64,000 nt of DNA from NCBI GenBank assembly GCA_043803225.1, contig JAZDKF010000027.1:22406-86405 (forward strand), in the 5' to 3' direction. The stretch comes from Candidatus Beckwithbacteria bacterium (GTDB lineage: Bacteria > Patescibacteriota > Microgenomatia > UBA1400 > CG1-02-47-37). Positions 4,599 to 54,198 of the stretch are shown here, piece after piece. The position numbers and the translations under genes were made by a program. Under the pieces are notes generated by a model that searched no databases, had not been told where the DNA came from, and saw nothing but the letters and a program-made list of their open reading frames with translations. Within the stretch, counting starts at the first letter, position 1. Each line of letters begins with the position of its first letter.

Positions 4599-5107
4599 AA
4601 AAATTTTTAGTAATTTTAGCAGCCGGAGTGTTACTGACAGGTTGTGTGAAGAAAACCGGGACAATTGGAACCGGGCAAAATAAAGTGGAAGAGTTTACCG
4701 GTAATTTAAAAGAAGCGATGGCAAAGAATTTACCGATGAAGTGCGAGTGGAAACAGAACAATAACAGCGGTGCGTCATATGTTAAGGGCGACGATATTTA
4801 TGTGGAGACTATAGTCGACGGTAAAAACGGGTTTATAATTATGAAAGATAACTGTATGTGGAGCTGGGGTGACCAGATGGAGCAGGGAGTGAAGTTTTGC
4901 AGCGAACCGACAGAGGTTGAGGTTAATGAAGATATTAAAAATCAGACAGGCGAGGATAAAGCCGAAGGGGTGGATTGGCAGATGGAATATAAATGCGCGC
5001 CAGCGATCTTTGGCGAGGAGAAGTTTACTCCACCGGCTGGAGTGAAGTTTACGGATATGGACGAGATGCTGCAGGGGTTGGGTAATCCTGGCTCAGACCA
5101 AGAATAA
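4595..5107 (+). CDS. Lipoprotein, hypothetical.
   Basis: Start moved to 'MKKFLVILAAGVLLTGC' (lipobox L-T-G-C). No known domain recognised. Confidence 0.45.
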   Translation: MKKFLVILAAGVLLTGCVKKTGTIGTGQNKVEEFTGNLKEAMAKNLPMKCEWKQNNNSGASYVKGDDIYVETIVDGKNGFIIMKDNCMWSWGDQMEQGVKFCSEPTEVEVNEDIKNQTGEDKAEGVDWQMEYKCAPAIFGEEKFTPPAGVKFTDMDEMLQGLGNPGSDQE

Positions 5108-8226: not shown

Positions 8227-9115
8227 ACTAGCGTTGATAACGGCCGGATTTTCCGGAGTGGCGGTATTTTTAAACTCGCTGACAGTTAAGGTAGTTGGAG
8301 ATGCTTTAGTGTTTACGACGATAAAAAATCTAGGGGTAGGACTGCTTTTGCTGGGAGTGTTAATAAGAAAGAAAATTAACTGGGTGGAAGTGAAACAAAA
8401 TTGGAAACAGTTGGGACTGATCGGCATCATCGGCGGATCTTTAGCGTTTTACTTATTTTTTAAAGGTTTGATGCTAACTAGTCCAGTGATGGGAAGCATG
8501 ATTCATAAAACTCTGGTGCTGTGGGTGGGGCTGCTGGGATTTGGAGTATTAAAAGAACGGTTAAACTTAAAGCAGGGAATTGCGCTTGCGGGAGTGTTTG
8601 GGGCCAGTGCCTTAATGGGCGGGTTTAACGGTTGGAGCTGGGGCAAAGGAGAGACAATGATTTTAGCAGCAACGATTCTTTGGGCAGTAGAAAATATTTT
8701 AGCTAAAAAAGTATTGAGGAAAGTAAGTGTGGAAACAGTCGCCGGATCCAGGATGATAGTCGGGTCAATAATTTTATTGGCGGTGACTGTCAGCAGCGGG
8801 AAATTGGGCTTAATTTTAAACTTAAACGGCTGGCAGTGGGGAATGACTTTGGTGAGCATTGGGCTGCTTTCTGGCTATGTTTTAAGCTGGTATAAAGCTT
8901 TGTCATTGGCACCAGTGAGTTTAGTAGGGACGGTGCTTTCTTTAGGGAGCTTGATAACTTCGGGTTTAAATTCGGTCTTTATTACTCATTCTTTATCAAT
9001 CGAGTTGATTTATCAGACTTTGTTGCTGAGCATATTTTCTTACATTTTTGTAAAAGAGGCGCAAAAAAATGCAAGGTTTGTTAAGGTGCAGCCGTTACGG
9101 ATTAGCGCCAAATAA
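8204..9115 (+). CDS. EamA/DMT superfamily transporter (10 TM).
   Basis: Two repeated 5-TM halves typical of DMT/EamA; hydrophobic throughout. Confidence 0.55.
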   Translation: MHYNKGFKLALITAGFSGVAVFLNSLTVKVVGDALVFTTIKNLGVGLLLLGVLIRKKINWVEVKQNWKQLGLIGIIGGSLAFYLFFKGLMLTSPVMGSMIHKTLVLWVGLLGFGVLKERLNLKQGIALAGVFGASALMGGFNGWSWGKGETMILAATILWAVENILAKKVLRKVSVETVAGSRMIVGSIILLAVTVSSGKLGLILNLNGWQWGMTLVSIGLLSGYVLSWYKALSLAPVSLVGTVLSLGSLITSGLNSVFITHSLSIELIYQTLLLSIFSYIFVKEAQKNARFVKVQPLRISAK

Positions 9116-9860
9116 GTTAAAGTATTGCGGTCCGGATAAGAATAAAGAACTAGAAGGATATTTAAAAACCAAGACGACTGATTGGGGTTTGGAAAGGATT
9201 TTAAAAGAGTTTAAAGCAATGCAGCCATACTTGAAATTGATTGCCCGGGAAAATGGGATAGCGGATGAGTTTGATGAGCGGGTAGTAGAAGCATATTGGT
9301 TGGGAAATGAGCTGCTGGATAAAGTGAGTTTGAAAGGGTTTTTTGATCACGCTTTAGGCAAGCTGGATAGGAAAAGTTTAAAGTGGTTTGAAGTAAAACT
9401 GGGACGAGGCGCGAAGCCAAACCACAGTTTCCATGTGTTTAATTTTTGGAAGCGGACAGGATATGTGGCAAGATTACACACAATTGAAACTATGGATAAT
9501 TGCAGGATTTCATGCGGTAAAGTTATTCGGCCTATGCTTGGCAATACGAAATTTTTGCGTGCTCACAGCTATCTGACTGAATCAGATGAGACGCTGCGCG
9601 CGCAAAAATCTGTATTTGCCATCGCTGGCCGAAATTCACACAGCCTACTGGTTAACACAGATAGATTGGTTTATAAGAATGGCAAGCTGGGCTTTGAGCC
9701 GGCGGTTAAAGAAATCAGTTTTTTGGAAGGGAAGTATCATCCGGAGGAGTTAGTGACGTTTCACTGGAATATGGTGTGCGAAAAGATTAATAAAACCCAG
9801 AAGGAAAATTTAGACAAATACACCAGATTGGCTTTGAACCTAGCGAATTTAACGGTATAA
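9069..9860 (+). CDS. Hypothetical protein; its reading frame runs straight through copy 1 of the repeated element at 9547-9610.
   Basis: Continuous 263 aa ORF. The segment 'KFLRAHSYLTESDETLRAQKS' is encoded by the repeat element. No known domain recognised. Confidence 0.3.
   Translation: MQGLLRCSRYGLAPNKLKYCGPDKNKELEGYLKTKTTDWGLERILKEFKAMQPYLKLIARENGIADEFDERVVEAYWLGNELLDKVSLKGFFDHALGKLDRKSLKWFEVKLGRGAKPNHSFHVFNFWKRTGYVARLHTIETMDNCRISCGKVIRPMLGNTKFLRAHSYLTESDETLRAQKSVFAIAGRNSHSLLVNTDRLVYKNGKLGFEPAVKEISFLEGKYHPEELVTFHWNMVCEKINKTQKENLDKYTRLALNLANLTV
9547..9610. repeat. Copy 1 of a ~65-75 nt conserved hairpin element (MITE-like or structured-RNA-like), inside an ORF.
   Basis: 'aaatttttgcgtgctcacagctatctgactgaatcagatgagacgctgcgcgcgcaaaaat'. 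The same flanks are at 20335-20404 and 45948-46025. The central stem is 'atctga'/'tcagat'. Confidence 0.7.
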
Positions 9861-10338: not shown

Positions 10339-10692
10339 ATGATCAAAATTATTGAAATTACCAAATTAAAACCGCATGAGCGGATTAGAAAAATTCATGC
10401 CAGAAAATTATTAAGGCAAATTATTATTGACGGCCGGTTAAAGAAGCCGATTATTGTTGATGGGAAAACAGGGGTAATTCTTGACGGCCATCACCGTTTT
10501 TGGGCAATTGGGCAGTTGGGTTTAAGCGGTATTCCTGCAAGAATAGTGAATTATCAAGATAAAAATATACAAGTAATTGCGTGGAGAAAAGGAGAGAAAA
10601 TTTCCAAAAGTGAAGTAATCAGAGCCGGAATGACAGGAAAGTTGTTGCGGCCGAAAACTTCCAGACATTTAATTCCTAAGGAACGATTATGA
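10339..10692 (+). CDS. Small ParB/Srx-fold protein (ParB-like nuclease/sulfiredoxin superfamily).
   Basis: 'KLKPHERIR...DGHHR' is a ParB/Srx-type motif (compare Srx 'GCHR', DUF262 'DGQQR'). 117 aa. The stop overlaps the start of the following cysteine synthase gene (ATGA). Confidence 0.45.
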   Translation: MIKIIEITKLKPHERIRKIHARKLLRQIIIDGRLKKPIIVDGKTGVILDGHHRFWAIGQLGLSGIPARIVNYQDKNIQVIAWRKGEKISKSEVIRAGMTGKLLRPKTSRHLIPKERL

Positions 10693-11561
10693 AAAATTTA
10701 TTACAAACAATCGGCAAGACGCCTATGGTGAAACTGGAAAGATATTCCACTAAGCGAGTTAAGATTTTTGCCAAACTGGAAGGCAATAATCCGGGCGGGT
10801 CAATTAAAGACAGGATTGGTTTGCGGATGGTCGAAGAGGCGGAAAAGAAAGGAATAATTCAGGGAAGGGAGTTATTGGAGGCGACCAGCGGCAACACCGG
10901 AATTGCTTTAGCGATGATTTCGGCGATTAAGGGATATAAATTTACCGCAGTAATGCCGGAGAGCGTGAGTTTAGAAAGGCGGAAATTATTGACCGCCTAT
11001 GGGGCGAAAATTATTCTGACAGACGGAGCCAGAGGTACTAATTATGCTATTAAAGTGGCTAAAGAAATAATGAAAGAGAATAAAGATAAATACTTGATGC
11101 TGAACCAGTTTGAAAATAAGGCAAATGTTTTGGCTCACTTTGAAACTACCGGCAGGGAGATTATTGAACAGCAGCCGGAAATAACTCATTTTGTGGCGGG
11201 AATGGGCACGGGCGGGACATTGATGGGCGTGGGGAAAAGATTGAAAGAGTTTAAGGCAAATATTCAAATAATCGGAGTTGAACCAAGAGCCGGGTCCAAA
11301 ATACAGGGCTTAAGAAATATGAAAGAGTATGTGCCCAAGATTTTTAAGGAAAAAAGGCTGGATAAAAAACTAGTAATAAAAGAAGATAAGATTGCGTTTG
11401 AGTTAATGAAGGATTTATTTAAAAAAGAAGGTTTATCGGTAGGAATTTCTTCCGGGGCCGGGCTTTGGGGAGCGATGGAGACAGCGAAAAAAATTAAAAA
11501 AGGAATAATTGTGACTATTTTTCCAGACAGGGGAGACAGGTATCTAAGCAATTGGCTATAA
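10689..11561 (+). CDS. cysK: PLP-dependent cysteine synthase family (CysK/CysM; O-acetyl- or O-phosphoserine sulfhydrylase).
   Basis: 'NPGGSIKDRIG' carries the PLP-Lys. 'SGNTGIALA' and 'GTGGT' loops are typical of the tryptophan-synthase-beta superfamily CysK/CysM. Confidence 0.75.
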   Translation: MKNLLQTIGKTPMVKLERYSTKRVKIFAKLEGNNPGGSIKDRIGLRMVEEAEKKGIIQGRELLEATSGNTGIALAMISAIKGYKFTAVMPESVSLERRKLLTAYGAKIILTDGARGTNYAIKVAKEIMKENKDKYLMLNQFENKANVLAHFETTGREIIEQQPEITHFVAGMGTGGTLMGVGKRLKEFKANIQIIGVEPRAGSKIQGLRNMKEYVPKIFKEKRLDKKLVIKEDKIAFELMKDLFKKEGLSVGISSGAGLWGAMETAKKIKKGIIVTIFPDRGDRYLSNWL

Positions 11562-11569
11562 TTTAACTA

Positions 11570-11923
11570 ATGAAAGTATCAGTGTTTGGGAATAAAGATT
11601 TAATCGAAGACAGGGCGGCAGTGGAGTTAATTCCGTGGCTGAAAAATAAATATCCGAAGGCGGAGATTAAAATTGAAGATCCAACTGAAGGATTGAAGCC
11701 GCCGGAAGACGGCAATTGGGTAGTGGTGGATGCGTGCCAAGGAATTAATAAAATAACCGAGTTTGATAATTTAGACCAGTTTGAAGCGAAAAGAAGAGTT
11801 TCGGTCCATGACTATGAAGTGGTGATGGAATTGAAGTTGATATTGAAGCTAGGCAAAGTGAAAAGCTTAAAGGTAATCGGGGTGCCGATGAAAGTTATTC
11901 GTCCGGGGTCTGGCCAAAAATAG
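11570..11923 (+). CDS. [NiFe]-hydrogenase maturation endopeptidase-like protein (HycI/HybD family, short form).
   Basis: 'VFGNKDLIEDRAA' (GN...[DE] metal ligand), 'VVVDAC' (DA motif), 'SVHDY' (His ligand) and a C-terminal 'VIGVP' (compare 'lIGVe'/'GIQP'). Spacing is similar to HycI/HybD. Confidence 0.45.
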   Translation: MKVSVFGNKDLIEDRAAVELIPWLKNKYPKAEIKIEDPTEGLKPPEDGNWVVVDACQGINKITEFDNLDQFEAKRRVSVHDYEVVMELKLILKLGKVKSLKVIGVPMKVIRPGSGQK

Positions 11924-12524
11924 TAATGGTGGTGCCGGGGTTGTCAGCTGACGCATAGATGCTGCGCTGGCCCTGCAGATCGGGTTGGGCCCAATAAAAG
12001 AGCTGGGCAACTTCTTCGGTTTTCATATTAATACAGCCGTGAGACATGGGGTGGCCGAAGTTGTCATGCCAGTAAGTGCCGTGAAGACCAAAACCGCGGG
12101 ACTTGGGAACTTCATCGCTATAAAAGAACATGGTGTAGGGGACATTGGGGAGGTAGTAGTAGGTATTTAGGGCTTTGGAACCGCCTTCCATTTTAGTATA
12201 GCGAAGCTTGGTCCAGATTTGAAAAGTGCCGGTGGGAGTCCGACCCCATTTTCCGGAAGAAATCAGAAAGTTATAAACAAGATTATTGTCTTCGTAGGCA
12301 TAGAGGCGTTGATTAGTCAGATCGATCTCGATTCTTTTATCAGCAGTGTTTTGACCCAGAACTATAGGTGGAAGGGTGTCGGTTTGAGCCAGGGGAGAAG
12401 ATACAGTCAGATTATTGAAAATTGCCTGAGGCGGAGTGGGATCAAAATCAGCGGAGAGGTGATTAAGGTCGAGGTTTTTTTGGCGGGAAAAAAGCAGGGT
12501 TAAAAAGACGATGAAGAGTTTCAT
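11895..12524 (-). CDS. L,D-transpeptidase (YkuD domain), secreted.
   Basis: Catalytic 'HGTYWHDNFGHPMSHGCINM' (His...SHGC). Start placed at 'MKLFIVFLTLLFS' (signal peptide). The ORF track allows 12569. Confidence 0.7.
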   Translation of the reverse strand: MKLFIVFLTLLFSRQKNLDLNHLSADFDPTPPQAIFNNLTVSSPLAQTDTLPPIVLGQNTADKRIEIDLTNQRLYAYEDNNLVYNFLISSGKWGRTPTGTFQIWTKLRYTKMEGGSKALNTYYYLPNVPYTMFFYSDEVPKSRGFGLHGTYWHDNFGHPMSHGCINMKTEEVAQLFYWAQPDLQGQRSIYASADNPGTTITIFGQTPDE

Positions 12525-13828
12525 TGCTTCCAGTTTATCTTTAAAAAGTGGGAGGCACAACTCATACAAGGATCATAAGCCCTGATTAAGACTTCGATTT
12601 CGTGTTCAAGTTCGGCCTTGAGGTTAGCGTTAAGGGTTTGGTTTTTGAGTTTGTTTTCAACCAGAATTTTGATGTCGTTTTGGATGTTTAGCTGGTTTTG
12701 GCCGGTGGGAACCAGGATTTCTGCATCTTTAACCAGATGATTTTCAATCGAGAGGTGGTGGTAGAGAATTCCCCGGGGAGCTTCAACTACACCGAAGCCT
12801 TCTCCGGAAGAGAGCTGGGATTTAACTAGGGGTTCGGGTTGGAATTTAGCTGAGGGGAGAATGGATAAAGTGTCGTCGATGGCATTTAAGATTTCAATAG
12901 CTTGGGCGAGATTGTTGTGATAGAGGTTGTGGGAGGGAAAAAGTTTTAAAGCAGCAGCAGCGCCGACTTTGGTTTGAGAATTTAAGGAGTTTTTATTGAG
13001 ATTGATTCGAGCCAGAGCGCCAGTAAAGTAAGGTCGGTCTTTATAGGTATAGGCAGAAGCCTGGGAGTACGGCAGGGCAAGGTGGTGGAGTTGGGAGCGG
13101 TAGTTATTTTGATGAATGCAGAGGCCGTCAGAACTGCAGATTTCACCGACAAGGTAAGAATAGTCGGGGTTTTTGTGGGATAAGTAGGGAGTGGAATGAG
13201 TTTGGGTTAAAGGGCAGTCGGCAAAGATGTGGATTAATTTTAAGACGGCCGGTCTGACAGCCTGGAATTTGGCAATGACTGGTTGGATGGTTTGGGGGTT
13301 GGGAAGCTGAGTAAAGCCGCCAACCTGGGGCAGGGGGGCATGGACCGAGCGGCCGCCGGCAAGGATAGAGAGTTGGTTGCCGGCATCTTTGACGTCAAAA
13401 GCATCGTGGACCAGCTGATGTTGTTTAGGGTCAGAGTCGTTAAAGTCTAAAAGGGAGTTCTTTTGAAATAAATCGGGAAGGACAAAGAGGTAAAGATGGA
13501 GGGCATGGTCGCGGATGATCAGGCCGTTGATAATCAGACGACGCAGGAGCATAGTTTGAGCCGAGGGGGTAATTTTTAAAGCGTTTTCCACGGCTTCAAT
13601 CGCGGCGAGGATATGGGCGTTGCTGCAGGTGCCGCAGATGCGGGCGAGAAGGGTAGGGGCGGCCAGGGCGGCTTTGCCGACAACTGCCTGAGTGTAGAAG
13701 CGTTTGTATTCGGTAATTTTAAAGTGGCATTTGGTGACTTGGCCATCCTGGATGGATAGGTCCAAACCAGCAGCACCCTCGATTTTGGAGATTTCTTCAA
13801 GTGATAGGTCTAAATTTATTTGATGCAT
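12521..13828 (-). CDS. [NiFe]-hydrogenase large (catalytic) subunit.
   Basis: N-terminal 'RICGTCSNAH' (RxCGxCxxxH) and C-terminal 'DPCMSCASH' (DPCxxCxxH) Ni-Fe ligand motifs. An 8-residue extension ('FLKINWKQ') follows the His, consistent with endoproteolytic maturation. Confidence 0.75.
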   Translation of the reverse strand: MHQINLDLSLEEISKIEGAAGLDLSIQDGQVTKCHFKITEYKRFYTQAVVGKAALAAPTLLARICGTCSNAHILAAIEAVENALKITPSAQTMLLRRLIINGLIIRDHALHLYLFVLPDLFQKNSLLDFNDSDPKQHQLVHDAFDVKDAGNQLSILAGGRSVHAPLPQVGGFTQLPNPQTIQPVIAKFQAVRPAVLKLIHIFADCPLTQTHSTPYLSHKNPDYSYLVGEICSSDGLCIHQNNYRSQLHHLALPYSQASAYTYKDRPYFTGALARINLNKNSLNSQTKVGAAAALKLFPSHNLYHNNLAQAIEILNAIDDTLSILPSAKFQPEPLVKSQLSSGEGFGVVEAPRGILYHHLSIENHLVKDAEILVPTGQNQLNIQNDIKILVENKLKNQTLNANLKAELEHEIEVLIRAYDPCMSCASHFLKINWKQ

Positions 13829-14957: not shown

Positions 14958-16205
14958 ATGTTACTACATAAAATCATGGATTTAATCAAAGAAATGGTGG
15001 AAGTCCGGGAGGGAAAAGTCACGGCGGTAGTGGAGAATAACTTGAAAGAAAGATGGGATGAATTAGCGGAAAAGGCGGTGTTTGGAGATGAAGAAGAGAA
15101 GCGGCAGGCGGGGTGGGTAATTTGGGAAGTAGGCCAGTTTGTCGGAGTCAGACCGGCCTCAATTAATGATTTATACATGGCCAGAGGCAGAGGCGAGGCG
15201 CCCTTAAATTTTACCGTACCGGCGATTAATGTCCGGGGGATGGCTTATGATTTTAGCCGGGCGATATTTAAAAGTGCCCAAGAGAGCCGGGTGGGAACCC
15301 TGATTGTAGAGATAGCTAAAAGCGAGCTTGATTATACCGGGCAAACACCGGAAGAGCTGGTAACAGTGGTATTGGCGGCGGCGATTCGGGAAGGTTGGCG
15401 GGGAGGGTTGGCATTTCAGCTGGATCATTGGGAAAATCCAGACGGTGTGGCGGAAGCCATAAAGGCAGGATTTTTAAACATTGATATTGATAAATCATTA
15501 TTACCTTTAAAAGCAAATATTAATCAAACAGTGAAAATGATCGAGCTAATCCGGGGAATAGAACCGGAAGGAGTGACAATGTCTTTGGGCGGAGAAATCG
15601 GCCATATCGGCGATAAAAATACGACGACGGCAGAAGTGGAAGCTTATATTAACGGAATTAATCAGAGTTTGAAAAAAGGGATAGTAGGTTTAAGTAAGAT
15701 TAGTGTGGCGACCGGAACCCATCACGGCGGAGTAATGTTGGCTGACGGGACTTTAGCAGAGGTAAAAGTAGACTTTAAAGCATTAGGGGAGATATCCAGA
15801 ATTTGCCGGCGATCAGGAATGGCGGGAGCGGTCCAGCACGGAGCTTCAACTTTAAGAGAGAAATATTTTAAAGAGTTTGTAAAATCTGAAACAGCGGAAG
15901 TTCATTTAGCCACAGAATTTCAAAATATTATTATGGATCATCCAAGTTTTCCTAAAGATTTATTGGAAAAGATGTACCAGTGGCTGGACAGTGAAGATGT
16001 TGAGCCAGCTCACTATAGTTTAAGGAAAAAGGCTTGGGGGAAGTTTAAAAAAGAGTGTTGGCAGATAGACAGCGGAGTCAGGGAAAAGATCAGGGAGGCG
16101 CTGGAACAGAAGTTAAAGTTTTTCTATAAAGAGTTAGGGGTGGAAGGAACAGGATTGCTGGCAAAAAAGTGGCTGAAACCGGTTGAACGGCATAAAGAAT
16201 TATGA
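14958..16205 (+). CDS. Class II (metal-dependent) fructose/tagatose-bisphosphate aldolase family, long form.
   Basis: 'NFTVPAINVRGMAYDFSRAIFKSAQESRVGTLIVEIA' parallels FbaA 'vPAfNv.N.E...Ai.eaA.e..sPvIlq.s'. A later 'HGAS' region is present. Start chosen at the Met with 'aaggag' RBS (14951-14956). Confidence 0.5.
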   Translation: MLLHKIMDLIKEMVEVREGKVTAVVENNLKERWDELAEKAVFGDEEEKRQAGWVIWEVGQFVGVRPASINDLYMARGRGEAPLNFTVPAINVRGMAYDFSRAIFKSAQESRVGTLIVEIAKSELDYTGQTPEELVTVVLAAAIREGWRGGLAFQLDHWENPDGVAEAIKAGFLNIDIDKSLLPLKANINQTVKMIELIRGIEPEGVTMSLGGEIGHIGDKNTTTAEVEAYINGINQSLKKGIVGLSKISVATGTHHGGVMLADGTLAEVKVDFKALGEISRICRRSGMAGAVQHGASTLREKYFKEFVKSETAEVHLATEFQNIIMDHPSFPKDLLEKMYQWLDSEDVEPAHYSLRKKAWGKFKKECWQIDSGVREKIREALEQKLKFFYKELGVEGTGLLAKKWLKPVERHKEL

Positions 16206-17215
16206 ATAAAAAAACAGTGAGAGACATAAATTTAAGAGGAAAAAAGATTTTATTGCGGGTGGATTATAATGTGGTTTTAGAGAATGGGCAGGTAGCAGAG
16301 GAATTGAGAATAAAACAGACAGTTCCGACAATAGAATATTTATTAAAGCAGGATAGCCAGCTGATTTTAATGTCGCATTTAGGCCGGCCGGAGGGAAAAG
16401 TGGTGGCAGAATTATCTTTGCGGCCGATAGCCGAGTATTTACAGAAGTTATTAAAAAAAGAAGTTAGTTTTATTGAACCACAGGGGCAAATTACGCTTTT
16501 GGAAAATGTCCGATTTGATCCCGGAGATGAAACTAATGACCCGGGGTTTAGCCAGCAGTTGGCCAGTTTGGGAGAGATTTTTGTAAATGATGCTTTCGGA
16601 GTTTGCCACCGGGCGCAGGCATCAACGGTAGGCATAACCAAGTTTTTACCGGCTGTGGCCGGGCTGCTGCTGGAAAAAGAAGTGGAGATGATTATGAAAG
16701 TAATGGAAAATCCGCTAAGGCCGTTGGTGGTAATAATCGGAGGGGCAAAGCTGGAGACAAAAATCGGAGTGATTAAGAAGTTATTAATCAAAGCGGATCA
16801 AATATTAATCGGCGGAGCAGTAGCCAATAAGTTGTTGGAAGAACCGGCCGGGGATAAAAAAATAATCCTGCCAGTCGACGGGGTACCACAGTTTTTCCAG
16901 ATGAAAGATATTGGATTAAGAACTCGAGAGCGGTTTGGCCAGATTATCAGTAGGGCAAAAACGATAATTTGGAACGGGCCGATGGGAATGTTTGAAGAGC
17001 TGAAGTTTAGCGGGGGAACGGATTTTATTTATGAGGCAATTAAAAAGAATAAACAAGCATTATCAATAGTCGGCGGCGGGGATACGCTAGGGGCATTAAA
17101 TAAAAATAAAGATTTTGAGACAAGTTTTACCCACGTGTCTACCGGCGGCGGAGCAATGCTGGAGCTGATTGAAAAAGGGACTCTTCCCGGCATTGAGGCG
17201 CTTGAAGACAAATAA
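16202..17215 (+). CDS. pgk: Phosphoglycerate kinase.
   Basis: 'LLRVDYNVV', 'SHLGRPEG', 'WNGPMGMFE' and 'GGGDTLGA' PGK motifs. Compact 337 aa form. Confidence 0.8.
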   Translation: MNKKTVRDINLRGKKILLRVDYNVVLENGQVAEELRIKQTVPTIEYLLKQDSQLILMSHLGRPEGKVVAELSLRPIAEYLQKLLKKEVSFIEPQGQITLLENVRFDPGDETNDPGFSQQLASLGEIFVNDAFGVCHRAQASTVGITKFLPAVAGLLLEKEVEMIMKVMENPLRPLVVIIGGAKLETKIGVIKKLLIKADQILIGGAVANKLLEEPAGDKKIILPVDGVPQFFQMKDIGLRTRERFGQIISRAKTIIWNGPMGMFEELKFSGGTDFIYEAIKKNKQALSIVGGGDTLGALNKNKDFETSFTHVSTGGGAMLELIEKGTLPGIEALEDK

Positions 17216-20308: not shown

Positions 20309-20334
20309 TAGAATATAACTTGTTTATTACTCGA

Positions 20335-20404
20335 CAAACAAAATTTTCTGCGTGCTCACAGCTATCTGACTGAATCAGATGAGACGCTGCGCGCGCAAAA
20401 ATTT
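20335..20404. repeat. Copy 2 of the conserved hairpin element, in the sufBD-sufS intergenic spacer.
   Basis: 'caaacaaaattttctgcgtgctcacagctatctgactgaatcagatgagacgctgcgcgcgcaaaaattt'. Nearly identical to copy 1. Confidence 0.7.
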
Positions 20405-20426
20405 ATTTGTCTCGTTAAACCTACCT

Positions 20427-37317: not shown

Positions 37318-37844
37318 TGATGAAAAAGATTTTATTGGCTTTAGTTTTAGTGTCGGCGGCAGTGGCCGAGAGACTGTGGTTTGATTTGGGGCCGAATATT
37401 GAGCTAATAACGACCGTAAGCGTAATCGCTTCAATTTATTTAGGCAAGCGCTGGGGGGCGGGAGTAGCAGTAATGGCTTTAGTCTTGTCAGACTTAGTGA
37501 TCGGCAATACAATGATACTGCTTTTTACCTGGAGTGCATTCGGACTGATTGGTTATCTGGGACGATGGTTAAAAGGTAAGGCTTGGTGGGTGGCCGGGGG
37601 TTATGGTTTGGGAGCATCGTTGTTTTTTTACTTTTACACTAATTTTGGAGTTTGGCTGATCAGCAGTTTATATCCGCATAATTTAAAGGGTTTAGTGGAT
37701 TGTTATGTGATGGGATTGCCGTTTTTACGCTTACAGGCAGTGAGCAACCTAATAATATTGACAGGAACATTAGCAATTATTAAATATTTAACTTCAAGTA
37801 TTTGGGTAAGCCGGTGGAAGTCCGGCACTGTGCCGCAACTGTAA
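37317..37844 (+). CDS. Small polytopic membrane protein (5-6 TM); possible ECF-type substrate-capture (S) component.
   Basis: 175 aa, hydrophobic throughout. TGATG start overlaps the preceding stop. No ATPase or T component is adjacent. Confidence 0.3.
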   Translation: MMKKILLALVLVSAAVAERLWFDLGPNIELITTVSVIASIYLGKRWGAGVAVMALVLSDLVIGNTMILLFTWSAFGLIGYLGRWLKGKAWWVAGGYGLGASLFFYFYTNFGVWLISSLYPHNLKGLVDCYVMGLPFLRLQAVSNLIILTGTLAIIKYLTSSIWVSRWKSGTVPQL

Positions 37845-37909
37845 ATCGTTTTAAACGATAAGTCAGAAAACCAGATTTGAAGTAGTTTTCTCCCGAGCAG
37901 GAGGCGAAT

Positions 37910-39493
37910 GTGGTTGGACATGAAGTTTTTGATCAGATAGCTGAAGTGAATTCTTTTAAAGGGTATAGGGCGAAGTTAGCAGCGGAAAATCCGGATTTAA
38001 GCCCAGAAATTATTTTTAAGCAGGCTTTAATTGGATTTAATACAATGATGTTTCCCAGGCAGGTGGAAACGTATTTGGCTGAGAAAGCCGGAGAGTTGGT
38101 CAGCCAGGTTGAACAAAAATATGAAGTGGTTGACGGCCGGTTAGTTGATCCGTTTTACGGTCTATTTCAAAAGATGATTGATTTTGCCAGCAGCGATGAG
38201 GAAAGAGAAACGTTAATCGCTTTTGAGAAGGAAGCAATTGGAGCAAAGCCCGGAGAAATTATCAATGTTTTGGATGCCAGCGCTTTGGGTAGAGGCGGGG
38301 GAGTGAAATATATGGATACATTTGAGAAGGAGATGGACGGATCGGTCAGACATAAGGATAGAATTGATTTAACCGGCGAGGGAGAAGACTTAAGTTTTGA
38401 GGAGGCAAAGTTGAAACTGGAGTTTCTAAAACAAAGTCAAGACTTTGAAGAGATATTAGTTCGACCGACGAGGTCTCTCCTTGAAGGCAAGGGACTACAA
38501 CCGTTAGCAACAGCGGCTAGCAGTTGGGATGCAGTTGGGCGGGCAAAACCCGCAAGGTTGAATCCTGAAGTCGAAGTTAAAATTGGATTAGTGTTTCAGT
38601 CGGAGAATAAAAATGAAGAGAAAGAAATGAAAACAGTTGAACCAGGAGCAGAATCGAGAAGACCTACAAGGACAGACCTCGTAGGTGAAATCAGAACTGT
38701 TTCTGATGTAGCCCTGGTGGTGAAAACATCAGAGTTAGATACAGAAACGACACCATTAATAATGAAAGCGGCAAAGCCGGAGGAGCCAACTTTTAGAATA
38801 GAAGAGATTATTGAAGCGCCGGCGACTTCAAAGATAGTCCCTAAAGTCACATTGCTGGAGATTCAACCGGCAATGACGGCAAAGCAAAGTATTCGACCTA
38901 CGAAGTTTGTCTTTGGAGTAATTGACCCTAAAGCAACAGTAACACCAGTGGTAAAGACATCAGAATTAGAGACAGAAACGACACCATTAATAATGAAAGT
39001 CGTAAGGCCTGAGGCGGTGATAGAGCCAGCAGAAGAAGAGGGGGAAAGTTTGGAAGCGAGAGTTGAGCTAGAGGTTAAAACTTCAAGGACTGTCCTTGTA
39101 GGCCCTGAAAAACAGGAAATAGCTGCACCAGCGGCAGGCAAGCCTACAAGGAGAGACCTTGTAGGTATTAAAGAAGAAGGGATTGTTTATCAAGCAGGTG
39201 AAACAGAAATACCAGAGATAATAACACCGGTAATAAGTGAAGAAGATAAACCTATTCCAATTTACCAAGTGCGGTGGCCGAAGCTGCAACCGTTAATAGG
39301 CATTCCGGAGTGGGTTTGGCAGCCGCAGGCAGCGAGTATTGATGAAGCGGTTGATTGGAATTTGTTTTTAGTAATAGTGTTTTATGCGTTATTGAACACA
39401 AAATCACTACTAAGAATAGATAGAGAAGATCAAATAAATGATTGGCCGGGGGAGGGGGTGAAGGAAAAAGTTAAAAGCAGACCGGTTTCTTGA
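37910..39493 (+). CDS. Repeat-containing acidic protein with a C-terminal TM helix; hypothetical.
   Basis: Internal duplicated blocks: 'VVKTSEL[DE]TETTPLIMK' twice with ~90% nucleotide identity, and a short 'PTR[RT]DLVG' motif four times. C-terminal 'LFLVIVFYALL' hydrophobic segment. Confidence 0.4.
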   Translation: MVGHEVFDQIAEVNSFKGYRAKLAAENPDLSPEIIFKQALIGFNTMMFPRQVETYLAEKAGELVSQVEQKYEVVDGRLVDPFYGLFQKMIDFASSDEERETLIAFEKEAIGAKPGEIINVLDASALGRGGGVKYMDTFEKEMDGSVRHKDRIDLTGEGEDLSFEEAKLKLEFLKQSQDFEEILVRPTRSLLEGKGLQPLATAASSWDAVGRAKPARLNPEVEVKIGLVFQSENKNEEKEMKTVEPGAESRRPTRTDLVGEIRTVSDVALVVKTSELDTETTPLIMKAAKPEEPTFRIEEIIEAPATSKIVPKVTLLEIQPAMTAKQSIRPTKFVFGVIDPKATVTPVVKTSELETETTPLIMKVVRPEAVIEPAEEEGESLEARVELEVKTSRTVLVGPEKQEIAAPAAGKPTRRDLVGIKEEGIVYQAGETEIPEIITPVISEEDKPIPIYQVRWPKLQPLIGIPEWVWQPQAASIDEAVDWNLFLVIVFYALLNTKSLLRIDREDQINDWPGEGVKEKVKSRPVS

Positions 39494-45935: not shown

Positions 45936-45947
45936 GGAATAACTCGG

Positions 45948-46025
45948 CAAACAAAATTTTCTGCGTGCTCACAGTTATCTGGCTAGCTAAAGCTACCAGA
46001 TGAGATGCTGCGCGCGCAAAATTTG
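45948..46025. repeat. Copy 3 of the conserved hairpin element, downstream of nrdJ paralog 3.
   Basis: 'caaacaaaattttctgcgtgctcacagttatctggctagctaaagctaccagatgagatgctgcgcgcgcaaaatttg'. Same flanks as copies 1 and 2. The central stem sequence differs but base pairing is preserved. Confidence 0.7.
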
Positions 46026-46044
46026 TATACTGAGTTATTAATTT

Positions 46045-48054: not shown

Positions 48055-48492
48055 ATGACAGACCTGCCCGATGATTCACAACAGAAACCGCCAGCGCCAC
48101 CGATAATAACCGGCCAGCCGGTAGGAGGGAAGGAAAGAGTTGATAATAAGCCCGCCGCAGCTGAGAGCTCTGGCGAGGCGAAGCAAGAAGAAACGCCGGT
48201 AACTGAGTTTACCCGGAATATAGATTTGGAACCGGAAGTGGAGGGCTGGCTGGAAAAGGTGGAAAAAGAAGACAGCCAAGCGCCTCAAGCGATCAAAGAT
48301 GATAAAGGTCAGGTAGTGCTGGATGATACGGCTCAGCCAGGGGCGGGTTTTAAAGTCGTGTTACCTTTGACTAAAGATGAAGTCGATAAAGGGTTGCAGC
48401 ATAAAGTGCTGGATAGCATCAGGTGGCTGGCAGAGTGGTGTATCAGAATGGTAAAGATGTTTGGCAGTAAAGTTGCCTACAGGAGAAAATAA
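48055..48492 (+). CDS. Pro/Glu-rich hypothetical protein, translationally coupled to the downstream ATPase.
   Basis: 145 aa with a low-complexity N-terminal half. TAATG overlap with the next gene. Confidence 0.3.
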   Translation: MTDLPDDSQQKPPAPPIITGQPVGGKERVDNKPAAAESSGEAKQEETPVTEFTRNIDLEPEVEGWLEKVEKEDSQAPQAIKDDKGQVVLDDTAQPGAGFKVVLPLTKDEVDKGLQHKVLDSIRWLAEWCIRMVKMFGSKVAYRRK

Positions 48493-50822
48493 TGGATAAA
48501 GTAACCATATTAATTGAACAAGCCAAGTATTTACTCTTAATTGCTTTTCTCTTAGGAATAGGCATGGTGATGTTGGCGGGTTTAGGTTATGTGGTGATCC
48601 ACTGGCTGAAGTTTAAGGATCGGGAGAAAAGATCTTTGGAGTTTGTCGTCTTGCAAATAGCCGTACCCAGAGATAATGAAGTGAAAATTGACGGTGCCGA
48701 GCAAATGTTTGCCTCGCTTTTCAGCGTGAAGAAAGGCGGCGGCCTGTTTAAATTTTTAAAGCCCCAGGATCATTTAAGCTTTGAGATTGTGGCTAAAAAA
48801 GAAGATATCAGGTTTTATGTATCGATTCCTAATAAATTGAAAGATTTGGTAGAAAAACAAATTCACGGAACTTACCCGGGTGCAGATGTCAGAGAAGTGG
48901 ACGAGTACAATATTTATGCCGACCACGGCAAGGTGGCGTTTGCGGCGATGAAACTAGGCAGCGCCTCGCATTTTCCGATTCAGATTTACAAGGATTTGCC
49001 GACGGATCCGTTAAGCTCAATTACTTCCGGACTGGCGAAAATGGGGGAAAACGAAGGGGCGGTAATGCAGGTGTTGATTTCGCCGGCGGATAACAAATGG
49101 CAGAAGTCCGGCCGGTCGTATATTGCCAAAACGAAAAAAGCCGAGGCAGATCCGGAGACGGCTAAATACACAGTGGACCCGAAAACTTATGAAGAAATTG
49201 AGAATAAGTGTTCAAAGCCGGGGTTTGAAACCACGATCAGAATGGTGGTGTCGTCCACGACCAAAGAATCAGCCGAGGCGCATTTGTCCAACCTGACTTC
49301 GGCTTTTTCCCAGTTTAATTCTGACCATAACAGTTTTACCAAGATGAAGATCAGGCTGAAAAAACTATTTATGATTGATTTTATTTACCGGTATCAGCCG
49401 CTGTTCGGATCAAAAAGCATTTTGTCGACCGAAGAATTGGCAACGATTTATCACTTTCCCAATAAGAGTATTGAGACGCCGCATATTTATTGGTTGAATG
49501 CCAAACGGGCGCCGGCGCCGGCTTTGATTCCGAAAGAAGGTTTATTTTTAGGCAAGAGCGTTTACCGGGGAGTGACCCGGCCGGTATATATTAGCGAGGA
49601 CGACCGGTTGAGGCACACCTATATTATTGGGAAGACCGGGGTGGGAAAGTCGGAGCTTTTAATTGAGATGATTATGCAGGATATCCGGGCCGGCAAGGGA
49701 GTGTGTTTTATTGACCCGCATGACACAGTCGAAAAGATTTTGGAAATGATTCCGCCGGAACGGGCAGAGGACGTAATTTACTTTAATCCTTCAGATACAG
49801 AAAGACCGCTGGGGCTTAATATGCTGGAGGCAAGAACTGAAGAAGAAAAACACTTTGTGACGACTTCAATCGTGGGTTTGATGTACAAGCTTTATGATCC
49901 GCACAAAACCGGAATTATCGGGCCGCGGTTTGAACACGCGATCAGAAATGCAATGCTGACAGTGATGAGCGAGCCGGGGAATACGTTTGTGGAAGTGGTC
50001 CGGGTGTTAACCGATGCCAAGTATGTGCAGGAGCTGCTGCCGAAAGTGACTGATCCGATGGTCAGACGATACTGGACTGACCAGATTGCCCAGACTTCGG
50101 ACTTCCATAAATCAGAAGTGTTGGACTACATTGTTTCCAAGTTCGGCCGGTTTGTGACTAATAAGATGATGAGAAATATAATCGGCCAGTCAGAAAGTGC
50201 GTTTAATTTTAGAAAAGTAATGGATGAGGGGAAGATTTTACTGATTAATTTAGCCAAGGGGAGAATTGGGGAAGAGAACAGCCAATTTTTAGGCCTGATT
50301 TTAGTGCCGAAGATTTTGATCGGGGCGATGAGCCGGCAGGATATTCCGGAAGAGCAGAGAAAGCCGTTTTATTTATATGTAGACGAGTTTCAGAATTTTG
50401 CCACGCCGGATTTTGCTCAGATTTTATCCGAGGCGAGAAAGTTTGGTTTGGCGTTGACAGTAGCGAATCAGTTTATCGGCCAAATGGAGGAGGAAGTCAA
50501 GAACGCGATTTTTGGCAACGTGGGAACTTTAATCTCCTTTCGGGTCGGAGTAAATGATGCTAATTATCTGCAGCATGAGTATCAACCGGTGTTTTCCGAA
50601 ACAGATTTGATTAATATTGAACGGTTTAATGCCTACATTAAAACTTTGGTTCATAATGAGCCGGCGCAGCCGTTTTCTTTGGATCTGACAAAAGATATGA
50701 GCAAGGCAAAAGAGGAGAGAAGCCTGAAGATGGCAGAGATGGTGAAACAGCTGTCCAGGTTAAAGTATGCCCGGGACTTGCGGGTGATTGAGGCGGAAAT
50801 TAGCCAGCGGTCGAAGTTGTAA
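48492..50822 (+). CDS. Membrane-anchored FtsK/HerA-superfamily P-loop ATPase of VirB4/TraC- or VirD4-like (T4SS/conjugation-type) architecture.
   Basis: N-terminal TM 'LLLIAFLLGIGMVMLAGLGYVVIHWL', a ~330 aa middle domain, Walker A 'HTYIIGKTGVGKS' followed by 'CFIDPHD', and Walker B 'FYLYVDEFQNF'. 776 aa, in the VirB4 size range. Confidence 0.45.
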   Translation: MDKVTILIEQAKYLLLIAFLLGIGMVMLAGLGYVVIHWLKFKDREKRSLEFVVLQIAVPRDNEVKIDGAEQMFASLFSVKKGGGLFKFLKPQDHLSFEIVAKKEDIRFYVSIPNKLKDLVEKQIHGTYPGADVREVDEYNIYADHGKVAFAAMKLGSASHFPIQIYKDLPTDPLSSITSGLAKMGENEGAVMQVLISPADNKWQKSGRSYIAKTKKAEADPETAKYTVDPKTYEEIENKCSKPGFETTIRMVVSSTTKESAEAHLSNLTSAFSQFNSDHNSFTKMKIRLKKLFMIDFIYRYQPLFGSKSILSTEELATIYHFPNKSIETPHIYWLNAKRAPAPALIPKEGLFLGKSVYRGVTRPVYISEDDRLRHTYIIGKTGVGKSELLIEMIMQDIRAGKGVCFIDPHDTVEKILEMIPPERAEDVIYFNPSDTERPLGLNMLEARTEEEKHFVTTSIVGLMYKLYDPHKTGIIGPRFEHAIRNAMLTVMSEPGNTFVEVVRVLTDAKYVQELLPKVTDPMVRRYWTDQIAQTSDFHKSEVLDYIVSKFGRFVTNKMMRNIIGQSESAFNFRKVMDEGKILLINLAKGRIGEENSQFLGLILVPKILIGAMSRQDIPEEQRKPFYLYVDEFQNFATPDFAQILSEARKFGLALTVANQFIGQMEEEVKNAIFGNVGTLISFRVGVNDANYLQHEYQPVFSETDLINIERFNAYIKTLVHNEPAQPFSLDLTKDMSKAKEERSLKMAEMVKQLSRLKYARDLRVIEAEISQRSKL

Positions 50823-50862
50823 AGAGTTGATTTTCTTCTGGATTATCCTATAATGTCCGAAT

Positions 50863-51852
50863 ATGAATTTGGAAAATGAGGTGCTACTGCCGCAGCCTGA
50901 AGTAATTAAACAAGAAAGAGCCGAACAGTTGGTAATAGGTGGAGAGTTTTGTGGAGTTAGTGAGGTAAATAAACTACTGGGAAAATTGGGTTTTACGACT
51001 GTTTCAGCGGGTAAGTTACTCAACATTTTTGATAGTGATGAGTTGGTTCAATCAGTGATAAGATATCCGAGAAATGAGTTTGTTCAATTGGGGAGAACAA
51101 TTATTGTTAGAGTAGATATAGCCCCTAGCGTATTAAAAAATGAACTGACATTAAGACTTAAGCAAATGAATAAAAATTCTGAAAAATTAACGGTTGTCCG
51201 AGATGAAATATTGGGTAATGGCGGTCAGTTTATGGCAGAGTCAGGTTTGATTATTGGCCCGGAGATATATTTTGATGAACGGGTAAATAAAGTTTTAGAT
51301 ACAACCGATTGCCATGATTGGAAAAGAGTGGCTTTGCCTACTCCTTCGATGAATGATTATTATTCTTGGTTGAATAGCCAAAGATCAAAGAAATACTTTC
51401 AAGAGTTAGGGGAAAAGTTGTCGGAAACGGAAGTAACTTATTTAAAAAATTATTATAATCAGAAATCATTAGGAAAATATCCGGATTTGGACCTTTTTGC
51501 CAATATTGGTACAGATAATCAGGTTCGGCCGAGGGTTTTATTAGACGATCTTTATGCGGAGATTTATCCTGTGGCAGAAGAAAGGGTAACTAGCCACAAT
51601 GTGACAGTTCATCGGATAAGTGCTTGGGAAGCCAATCGTTTTCTAGCTGATAACTTTTTGTCTTTGGGGAGGTCAGCGGCTGGCAGAGTGGTTTTTGTCA
51701 GTGAAGGCAGCACCGAGACGCAGCAATTATTAAGAGAAGAATTAAATTATAAAGAAATTGTTGGAGGGCAGCTTGATTTAGTAGTAGACAGACAACATGG
51801 GGCGGGATGGCACTGCCGGTTTAATGTGATTGACCTAAGCGTGTTTAAATAA
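50863..51852 (+). CDS. Hypothetical protein (AT-rich, soluble).
   Basis: 329 aa ORF. No known motif recognised. Confidence 0.3.
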   Translation: MNLENEVLLPQPEVIKQERAEQLVIGGEFCGVSEVNKLLGKLGFTTVSAGKLLNIFDSDELVQSVIRYPRNEFVQLGRTIIVRVDIAPSVLKNELTLRLKQMNKNSEKLTVVRDEILGNGGQFMAESGLIIGPEIYFDERVNKVLDTTDCHDWKRVALPTPSMNDYYSWLNSQRSKKYFQELGEKLSETEVTYLKNYYNQKSLGKYPDLDLFANIGTDNQVRPRVLLDDLYAEIYPVAEERVTSHNVTVHRISAWEANRFLADNFLSLGRSAAGRVVFVSEGSTETQQLLREELNYKEIVGGQLDLVVDRQHGAGWHCRFNVIDLSVFK

Positions 51853-51870
51853 TGGTAAAATACAGTTTAC

Positions 51871-51944
51871 AGGCCGGTAGCTCAGTTGGTTAGAGCGTCA
51901 AGCTTATACCTTGAATGTCGGAGGTCCGACTCCTCCCCGGCCTA
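51871..51944 (+). tRNA. tRNA with anticodon UAU (tRNA-Ile reading AUA); atypical T-loop.
   Basis: Manual cloverleaf: acceptor 'aggccgg'/'ccggcct', D-arm 'gctc..gagc', anticodon stem 'tcaag'/'cttga' with loop 'cttatac' (anticodon tat), T-stem 'ggagg'/'cctcc' with loop 'tccgact' (C at position 55). No encoded CCA. Confidence 0.6.
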
Positions 51945-51975
51945 CTCGTTTAATAATTTTCCTGCCCAAAAATTT

Positions 51976-52926
51976 ATGACGCAGGAATATTTAGCAAATT
52001 TAGGGGTGAATTGCGAAGGCAAGCCAATTACGCCTTGGGTAGAGCGGAATTTAATCTTTGGTTTGGGGCTACCGGAACCGGACAATGAATTAGTATTACT
52101 TCCCGAAGACAGGTTTAAAATCGATTGGCCTGGAAGGGAAATTAGCAATAGTGGCGCTTTTTCGAAGATTATTCTAGGCTTTGACTGCAAATTGAATCGG
52201 GAAGTGGCCATTAAAGTCCAAGTCATGAAGGACGAGGTTAAGGTTGCGCCAGAAATAATGATTCAGGATTTTGCCAGGGAGGCGAGGTTGATGATGATAC
52301 TTGATCATCCGAACATTCCGGAAGCATTCGGTTTAAGCGTGATTAAAGACAGGGGTGAATTTATCCCGGCAATCGTTATGGAGAGGGCTGATGGCGATCT
52401 TGAGGGCCAGCGATGGCTTGATCCAAAAAAAGTCAGTGAAATGGTTATGACTATTGGTGGAGTTGTAGACTATGCCAGAAGTAGAGGGGTGGTTCATTCA
52501 GATATTCGTCCGGCAAACATCCTGATTAAGGGAGACAAGTTTTTCTTAGGTGATTGGGGAGCGGCAGTAGATTTTAAAGGTAGAGATGAATTAATAGGTT
52601 TTTATACTTATGCGGCTCCGGAATTATTGCGATTAGCTAAATTACATCGATGGATTTATCCCGGGGAGATTCTAGCAGTTGACCAGCATGCTTTAGCGGC
52701 GACAGCCTATGATATACTGACTCTTTTTACCTCAACTTATATTTGGACAGAAGCTGGCGAAAATAGAGATGATCATCAGGATGAGGATGTTGTTTTAAGC
52801 CCACATAAGAAGATAAATGAAGAGGTTTATCAGGTTTTAGCAAGGGCGACAAGTTTTAAGCCAGAGGATAGGTTTAGCAGTTGTATAGAATTCGGTTTGG
52901 CGTTAAACGAAGCGATTAGGGCTTAA
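51976..52926 (+). CDS. Eukaryotic-like Ser/Thr protein kinase-like protein.
   Basis: 'VAIKV' (beta3 Lys), catalytic loop 'HSDIRPANIL' (HRDxKPxN-like), 'DWG' (DFG-like) and 'APE'. Start moved downstream of the tRNA to 'MTQEYL'. Confidence 0.5.
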   Translation: MTQEYLANLGVNCEGKPITPWVERNLIFGLGLPEPDNELVLLPEDRFKIDWPGREISNSGAFSKIILGFDCKLNREVAIKVQVMKDEVKVAPEIMIQDFAREARLMMILDHPNIPEAFGLSVIKDRGEFIPAIVMERADGDLEGQRWLDPKKVSEMVMTIGGVVDYARSRGVVHSDIRPANILIKGDKFFLGDWGAAVDFKGRDELIGFYTYAAPELLRLAKLHRWIYPGEILAVDQHALAATAYDILTLFTSTYIWTEAGENRDDHQDEDVVLSPHKKINEEVYQVLARATSFKPEDRFSSCIEFGLALNEAIRA

Positions 52927-53786: not shown

Positions 53787-53829
53787 ATCATGAGGTAAAA
53801 GTGTCTTATAATAACAATTAGGGGGATAG

Positions 53830-54198
53830 ATGTCAACGAGTAAAAAACGATTATTAGCGTATACCGTATTGGTTTTGAGTATATTAATGTCAATTAAGCT
53901 GGTTAAAGACATTGTTAAATTAAAGTCGGCTGACACCAGATTAACTGAGGCAGAAACAGAGTTTCAAGCAGCACAACAGGAACAGGCAGAATTGAAACAG
54001 CAGCTAATTGAGATTGAAGATAAAAGTTGGTGGGAAAAGCAAGTGAGAAATATTTTAAAAATGGCCAAACCGGAAGAGATTATTGTAGTAGTTCCGGACG
54101 AAGTGAAGAATAGCCGGGAGAGTCCAACAGAAGCTCAAAGTGAGGCAGTAACGGAGTTGCCAAATTGGCAGCAGTGGTGGCAGGTGGTAGTTGACTAG
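53830..54198 (+). CDS. FtsB/DivIC-like septum-formation initiator (TM plus coiled coil).
   Basis: N-terminal TM 'LLAYTVLVLSILMSI', a leucine-zipper-like 'QQEQAELKQQLIEIE' and 'WWEKQVRNILKMAKPEEII' resembling the FtsB gamma-domain. Confidence 0.4.
   Translation: MSTSKKRLLAYTVLVLSILMSIKLVKDIVKLKSADTRLTEAETEFQAAQQEQAELKQQLIEIEDKSWWEKQVRNILKMAKPEEIIVVVPDEVKNSRESPTEAQSEAVTELPNWQQWWQVVVD

Follow-up and report, generated by a model that had tools for sequence, protein, structure and literature searches.

The 64,000-nucleotide stretch of contig JAZDKF010000027.1 from a Candidatus Beckwithbacteria bacterium (the window, whose own numbering is used below unless another locus is named) contains three copies of an imperfect palindrome, here called type A, which probably represent a small, non-autonomous and selfish palindromic mobile element of Microgenomates bacteria (candidate phyla radiation, CPR). 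Comparison with related loci from other genomes and metagenomes (given as L numbers) shows that the element has been repeated, has moved, has become nested and has decayed, and that it is tolerated in frame in proteins. An initial annotation, made from the letters of the window alone, had offered three identities for the repeats: a small or cis-regulatory RNA, a mobile palindrome like the repetitive extragenic palindromes (REPs) or miniature transposable elements with inverted repeats (MITEs), and a recombination site. The mobile palindrome is the one upheld by the in-frame copies, by the sites that are filled in one genome and empty in another, and by the remnants and nesting described below; the RNA and the recombination site are not borne out.

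Copies in the window and their folding

The three copies are present at the places first reported, and all are on the + strand. A covariance model built from ten copies and run over the whole window with filters off finds the three with 90-107 bits (E 1e-20 to 1e-25) and nothing else above 13 bits except the reverse strands of the same sites (22-29 bits). Copy 1 matches the model at 9533..9626 (palindrome 9538-9621; 96.7 bits, fold of -39 kcal/mol), copy 2 at 20326..20419 (palindrome 20329-20415; 107.1 bits) and copy 3, which is a type A copy with a long inner hairpin, at 45939..46039 (palindrome 45938-46039; 89.6 bits). The flanks of the central hairpin are near-identical as described; the motif TGCGTGCTCACAG (at 9556, 20349 and 45962) and the motif GCTGCGCGCGCAAAA (at 9593, 20386 and 46007) each occur exactly three times in the window, with about 0.5 and about 2 matches, respectively, expected there by chance even when mismatches are allowed. 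The length of 65-75 nt originally given to the unit is too short, since comparison with the copies of other genomes reveals further paired arms, TTGRCTCGGCAKACGAAATTTT ... AAAATTTGTATTGCCTGCGYCAA, and the palindromes in the window are about 85-102 nt each.

The genetic contexts are also as first described. Copy 1 lies inside an open reading frame (ORF), copy 2 between SufD-like and SufS genes and copy 3 after a set of ribonucleotide reductase (RNR) genes. Copy 2 takes up the greater part of the 118 nt that separate the SufD-like stop at 20308 from the SufS start ATG at 20427, and the ORFs on its two sides match Pfam SUFBD_core and Aminotran_5. We note that the longest ORF for SufS begins at an ATG at 20379, inside copy 2, and that 20427 is likely the true start. 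Copy 3 occupies the spacer from the stop of the third RNR gene (45935) to the ATG of maf (46045), and its flanking ORFs are likewise assigned by Pfam.

From the outside inward, the element consists of A/T-rich arms, a G/C stem, an internal loop, a CAGC/GCTG helix and a variable tip hairpin. Its ends, which can also be written TTGRCTCGGCATACGAAATTTT ... AAAATTTGTATTGCCTGCGYCAA, read TTGRCTCGG... and ...CTGCGYCAA. The G/C stem TGCGTGC/GCGCGCA is invariant and the internal loop is asymmetric (TCA opposite C); in subtype A2 the stem is GCAGTGC/GCGCTGA, with two neighbouring pair swaps. The exchange of the central hairpin noticed at the outset is real: copies 1 and 2 have ATCTGA/TCAGAT and copy 3 has the longer ATCTGGCTAGC/GCTACCAGAT (inner-hairpin subtype GGCTAGC-TAAA-GCTACC), and next to it a CAGT/GCTG wobble helix replaces CAGC/GCTG in copy 3. 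The ends are inverted repeats, with terminal arms of 22-27 nt that are 74-82% complementary, and each copy folds as one long imperfect hairpin, as had been proposed. The same is true of all 19 copies folded (type A and a sister type B, see below), each of which forms a single long hairpin, with folding energies of -31 to -51 kcal/mol whichever strand is folded.

In an alignment of 15 copies to a 36-pair structure, the standard pair is formed in 89% of cells, compared with 33-56% when the partners are slid. Both sides have changed in 11 of the 36 pairs, the outer helix has eight pairs changed on both sides, and the observed covariation score is reached by none of 500 shuffles. The covariation is thus real, and the original argument that a sequence change with kept pairing points to a structured nucleic acid holds and extends to the arms. 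Retained pairing is by itself no pointer to RNA, because a DNA palindrome, or template-switch correction of quasi-palindromes, gives the same pattern and both strands fold equally. The short core does fold well above shuffled sequence on the + strand (z -4.5 to -5.1), and better than on the - strand; this + strand advantage vanishes over the full element, and a strand-specific RNA fold was rejected for that reason. Likewise, over the 19 full copies G-U pairs number 40 on the + strand and 53 on the - strand, so there is no + strand enrichment. Several features do give the element a polarity: a TCA bulge faces a single C, a loop reads GAGAC, and in 15 of 15 copies two T-G wobbles are unchanged.

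Mobility, decay and insertion into protein genes

The element is not unique to the three sites in the window. Pattern scans and the covariance model together bring the number of type A copies to about 15; these occupy about 13 sites, and the related CPR genomes or populations that carry them number roughly nine. An exact-pattern scan of species-representative genomes found three loci, L001-L003, one in a candidate division WWE3 genome and two in metagenome-assembled genomes (MAGs) labelled "uncultured Pseudomonadales". A pattern scan of metagenomes gave 29 loci, among which are 13 real copies at six sites (L004/L024, L008/L018/L023, L013/L020-22, L026, L029 and L031), two of the sites being already known from the genome scan; the other 16 were discarded as G+C-rich chance matches with unrelated flanks. 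The covariance model added diverged copies in L026 (310-400), L008 (138-227), L001 (4881-4977), L033 (6924-7015) and L035 (7732-7820), and L001, L008, L026, L033 and L035 carry two to four copies each. A sister type B has similar arms and a common GTGCTCA motif around a different core. Viral contigs gave no match with the three patterns. Searches with the in-frame peptides found only P0121, which is probably a spurious ORF over an intergenic copy, and other weak matches to unrelated repeat proteins; the concatenated-peptide search missed the window's own DUF6390 protein, so its index is lossy, and a full HMMER search of representative proteins with the in-frame peptide returned unrelated repeat proteins only. 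A full-text literature search found no description of such elements in CPR bacteria.

We note that the "uncultured Pseudomonadales" MAGs (L001, L002 and L035; GenBank CAZDQA01, CAZYUF01) are syntenic with the window in two regions, HypC-EamA-DUF6390-RidA-hydrogenase and nrdR-RNR-RNR-RNR-maf, and have the same strong GC skew. The label looks wrong, since this gene order matches that of the CPR window.

Comparison between relatives finds orthologous sites filled in some and empty in others. The junction of the hydrogenase small and large subunit genes is empty in the window (13816-13828), is filled by subtype A1 in L024 and L004, and is filled by subtype A2 in L033 and L034. The nrd operon of L001 has copies at nrdR/RNR1, RNR1/RNR2 and RNR3/maf; in the window the genes abut at the first two of these junctions (40070/40071 and 41975/41977, respectively) and copy 3 is present at RNR3/maf. 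The long inner-hairpin subtype of copy 3 is found in addition after RNR1 in L001 (the copy at 4881-4977) and after a DUF5673 gene in L031 (859-960), and its presence at unrelated loci means that the subtypes are not locus-bound. Decayed forms include a left arm alone in the L026 MnmA gene, at the site that is filled in L002, two arms fused with the core deleted in L026 (1214-1259), and an orphan type A right arm that follows the type B copy at 743-855 of L001.

Copy 1 is nested within an older palindromic element, of which remnants of about 10 nt survive from both arms. On the left, 9528..9537 (+ strand; CGGCCTATGC) matches the arm start CGGCCACAGC in L036, and on the right, 9622..9635 (+ strand; TCGCTGGCCGAAAT) matches the L036 arm end GCTGTTGGCCGAAAT. 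The older element type is still whole at the DUF6390 site of L036, and several DUF6390 homologues keep the peptide F-A-V-G-R-N at the position of the right outer-arm remnant. Extra outer arm fragments are present in L024 as well. Between genomes the element is 74-77% identical, as against 43-59% for the flanking coding DNA; taken with the filled and empty sites, the remnants and the nesting, we read this high identity as recent movement or replacement, not as conservation in place.

Four type A copies are in frame and free of stop codons within protein genes: one in the DUF6390 gene of the window, one in an MnmA-like gene (L002) and two in ATP-grasp genes (L003 and L026), the latter at the same position of homologous proteins. 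The second half of the element is always read as ...DETLRAQ..., and the first half is read in either of two frames, set by the length of the tip. Several type B copies are within ORFs too. Since every one of the in-ORF copies keeps the frame open, they are evidently translated and not removed from the mRNA. An intron, excision at the RNA level or ribosomal bypass was rejected because these copies are stop-free and in frame, which is needed only if they are translated, and the element is too short to be a group I or II intron.

The host gene of copy 1 (9069..9860, + strand; 263 amino acids) belongs to the DUF6390 family (Pfam PF19927, E 6.6e-43), and its product has 100% identity to an NCBI protein from a Candidatus Beckwithbacteria MAG. 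The copy is translated in frame as ...GNTKFLRAHSYLTESDETLRAQKSVFAIAG..., from which a tryptic peptide AHSYLTESDETLR is predicted, and the Pfam match is split in two around it. Homologues without the insert have 226-228 amino acids, and many others carry 25-37 more residues at this position, contributed by elements of type A, of type B or of intermediate form. AlphaFold gives a model of only moderate quality (mean predicted local distance difference test score, pLDDT, of 60.5 overall), in which residues 158-189, the insert, score below 50 and are placed between a strand at 148-153 and a confident C-terminal sheet that begins at 192.

At 3526-3582 of L034 the reading frame of the hydrogenase small subunit continues for about 19 codons within an element before its stop, which gives the subunit a C-terminal extension. 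Positions 727-826 of L002 are exactly 100 N, in the ATP-grasp gene at the place where L003 and L026 carry the element; this run was rejected as evidence of a copy, as the counterpart contig from a metagenome, L008, shows 60 nt of normal coding sequence at that place, and it is probably an assembly gap caused by strain variation at the ATP-grasp site. The corresponding stretch of L008 itself (10380-10445), the site filled in L003 and L026, is A-rich with repeated ACTCAAAAC/ACGAAAA motifs, encodes SKLKTKNEKLT, and may be the remnant of a worn-down element arm.

Orientation, mechanism and competing explanations

Each of the 19 copies occupies the strand that is locally G-rich. In the window, G+C content is 42-45%, GC skew stays near +0.3 in all 4-kb blocks and about 85% of genes are on the + strand. 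Whole-chromosome disparity of G and C between strands has been reported for Beckwithbacteria and their relatives, with the suggestion that replication runs in one direction (PMC7143001); to judge from that report and from general knowledge, the G-rich strand would be the lagging-strand template. Most copies are co-oriented with genes because all are on the G-rich strand. The copies in the hydrogenase operons of L024 and L033b are antisense to both flanking genes and are yet on the G-rich strand, which favours, from one site only, an orientation tied to the replication strand rather than to transcription. These two copies are of different subtypes and so may be independent events.

If the repeats are a selfish palindromic mobile element, it would spread to new sites, and the copies that survive would be those in intergenic spacers and those that are in frame and stop-free in tolerant protein loops, where they would add about 30 residues. 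Movement might occur as a folded single strand, on the strand that is exposed during replication, the putative mobiliser being of the HUH/Y1 type, for example a transposase of the IS200/IS605 family or a REP-associated tyrosine transposase (RAYT). A single-strand mechanism is suggested jointly by the strand bias, by the conserved asymmetry (the TCA bulge and the two T-G wobbles), by insertion into older hairpins and by the fact that no clear target duplication is seen; we put it forward tentatively, as quite possible but short of likely.

Several observations weigh against a selfish mobile element. No transposase or parent element was found by Pfam and NCBIfam among the approximately 70 ORFs of the window or in the called genes of L033-L038, and the scanned ORFs, which cover part of the genome, revealed no domain of a Y1 transposase. 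The element has few copies, about 15 in total as given above, and its family is seldom met in public data. The strand bias is confounded, since about 85% of genes are on the G-rich strand too, and only two copies, from one site, discriminate. The flanks of the approximately 15 copies have no common direct repeat, and the divergence between filled and empty genomes is too great for a target-site duplication or an exact boundary to be defined. Genomes whose proteins share only 60-70% identity have an invariant core in common, which could mean purifying selection on a function, and selection could also account for the occupancy of the DUF6390 loop, the ATP-grasp loop, the hydrogenase site and the RNR3/maf site in several lineages. 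There is a small chance that the repeats are instead a CPR-specific, strand-locked hairpin that homes both into earlier copies and into given positions of conserved genes, by means of an as yet unrecognised single-strand DNA enzyme and on a chromosome replicated in one direction, or that they are kept by selection for a role in the mRNA or the host proteins. From either, both the invariant core and the repeated use of the DUF6390, ATP-grasp, hydrogenase and RNR3/maf sites by different subtypes would follow.

The selfish mobile element might also be a classic cut-and-paste MITE, in which the arms are terminal inverted repeats for a DDE transposase encoded elsewhere and the hairpin is a mere by-product. 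The outer 20-25 nt of both arms are indeed similar inverted repeats that covary between subfamilies, the element is short, non-autonomous and multi-copy, and TA- or TTA-like bases that could be a short duplication flank copies 2 and 3. Target duplication is not consistent across the approximately 15 copies, however, and pairing is kept over the full length including the centre, which end-binding does not need; a strand bias of 19 out of 19 is unexpected under double-strand cut-and-paste, and the scanned ORFs of the window include no DDE transposase. We regard this mechanism as unlikely. As a site for site-specific recombination, the element could be either an integron attC-like folded site or an Xer/dif-like target of the one recombinase in the window, an Xer-like tyrosine recombinase with its gene at 52923-53936. 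Like attC, the element is an imperfect palindrome within the range of 60-140 nt whose outer parts are conserved and whose centre varies, with a polarity given by unpaired bases and a strand bias. Its ends lack the attC motifs RYYYAAC (R'') and GTTRRRY (R'), its copies lie in ORFs and between housekeeping genes with no cassette array, and the recombinase is best classified as a generic XerC/XerD (79.8 bits with the integron-integrase model, for which the cut-off is 265). The dif site has a 28-bp layout, which the element does not resemble, and a recombination site of either kind is highly improbable.

A cis-acting structured RNA, kept by selection at gene junctions as an mRNA-stabilising or RNase III-processed hairpin or as a translational pause site, would account for the folding of the + strand core well above shuffle, the compensatory changes, the core and G-U pairs that are invariant across genomes, the greater conservation of the core than of neighbouring coding DNA and the co-orientation of most copies with genes. 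It sits poorly with several other facts: the full element folds equally on both strands with no excess of G-U pairs on the + strand; the hydrogenase-operon copies are antisense to their operon; close relatives have the genes abutting at orthologous junctions, with no copy between them; remnants without the core persist; and copies occur in protein loops, in intergenic spacers and both 5' and 3' of genes. In addition, copy 2 has no meaningful Rfam family match even at E up to 10, and at the gathering score Rfam finds only three tRNAs and an AdoCbl (adenosylcobalamin) riboswitch over the whole window. There is no terminator signal on the + strand. We consider such an RNA quite improbable. An intrinsic terminator was rejected, as copies 2 and 3 have no + strand site and copies are also found within ORFs; the - strand has a weak terminator-like site of 5 pairs with a tail that starts AAAA. 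A hammerhead-like core was rejected as well: CAGATGAG resembles CUGAUGAG but has A at the essential U4 and no Rfam ribozyme matches, and on the - strand CUGUGAG also fails.

Neighbouring features and likeness to known systems

The AdoCbl riboswitch (37779-37910, 58.5 bits) precedes a 527-codon ORF at 37910-39493 that has no Pfam or NCBIfam match. This ORF is followed by nrdR and then by three consecutive RNR genes of 634, 582 and 751 codons, a three-gene layout that is shared with L001. Inside the 527-codon ORF is an inverted repeat (39081-39164) with 23-nt arms that are 87% complementary and 38 nt apart; it has no similarity to the element. Further to the right, after a gene for a coupling ATPase of the VirD4/TraD kind (48492-50822), come a 329-codon ORF without annotation, a tRNA gene (51871-51944), a Ser/Thr kinase gene and, on the - strand, the Xer-like recombinase gene; the region 48492-53936 may belong to an integrated or conjugative element or to a CPR type IV system. 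The phosphoglycerate kinase gene (16202-17215) encodes only 337 amino acids, and its Pfam match is in two stretches, the best of which covers positions 1-222 of the 379 in the model, so this protein may be shortened or rearranged. In L036, SufB (10689-12629) contains an intein with a LAGLIDADG endonuclease (Pfam Hint_2, Intein_splicing and LAGLIDADG_3); the Suf genes of the window have no such insert.

At least one closed Microgenomates genome has been reported to be without recognisable mobile elements (PMC7143001). A spreading palindrome that is tolerated in essential genes such as MnmA would mean that selfish DNA persists in the tiny, streamlined genomes of CPR bacteria (Patescibacteria), and would be a second, independent case of the route known from Rickettsia by which repeats add insertions of about 30 residues to proteins. 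There are practical consequences too, in that such elements can break metagenome assemblies (the 100-N gap of L002), extend or mis-start gene calls and inflate apparent protein divergence. If the strand bias holds in whole genomes, it would offer a handle on chromosome replication and on the mobilising enzyme.

In behaviour the closest known elements are the Rickettsia palindromic elements (RPEs), RPE-1 to RPE-10 (Ogata et al. 2000, as summarised in PMC10969869), which are in-frame selfish DNA in Rickettsia housekeeping genes. Both are short palindromic repeats without coding capacity of their own in bacteria with reduced genomes, a large part of the copies of both are in frame and stop-free in unrelated housekeeping genes, where they add a conserved peptide, others are intergenic, and neither has a known transposase. 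The CPR element differs in being 85-113 nt long, as against about 100-150 nt for RPEs, in belonging to an unrelated phylum (Microgenomates/CPR), in its much lower copy number in the available data, and in that its strand bias is complete, nesting is frequent and different subtypes use the same sites again. Because the host is a Candidatus Beckwithbacteria, membership of the RPE family by descent is very unlikely, and the likeness is drawn on behaviour.

Among other small bacterial repeats, the MITEs Correia/NEMIS of Neisseria, ERIC/IRU of enterobacteria, BOX/RUP of pneumococcus and Nezha of cyanobacteria are similarly small, non-autonomous and palindromic and show insertion polymorphism between relatives. 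Like the CPR element, bacterial MITEs are found at gene junctions and are sometimes intragenic with open frames (PMC10969869). They differ from it in that their terminal repeats and target duplications (such as TA for Correia) are defined or their parent insertion sequences are known; no autonomous insertion sequence with the same ends as the CPR element was found in the approximately 70 ORFs of the window or in the fetched loci. The attC sites of integrons share the imperfect palindrome, the variable centre whose structure is kept, the polarity given by unpaired bases and the use as a folded single strand, but the CPR element has no attC end motifs, cassette array or integron integrase, its arms and core are strongly conserved, and it has copies in genes.

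In shape and probable mechanism the nearest known elements are the REPINs of REP/REPIN-RAYT systems, which are also roughly 100-nt, one-hairpin units of two inverted arms with conserved asymmetric bases and no obvious target duplication, probably act as single-stranded DNA, and have an orientation linked to the replication strand. An orientation bias of the latter kind is likewise a trait of IS200/IS605-derived (PATE-like) elements, and the placement of 19 of 19 copies on the G-rich strand agrees with it. REPs and REPINs are extragenic, usually occur in hundreds of copies and have a 5' GTAG/GGAG signature; the CPR element, in contrast, is found inside ORFs and in few copies, no RAYT gene was found in the scanned ORFs, and the alignment has no conserved GTAG/GGAG tetranucleotide at the arm starts. 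The element thus resembles RPEs most closely in its behaviour and REPINs in its shape and probable mechanism, and by sequence, host or defining signatures it probably belongs to neither family.

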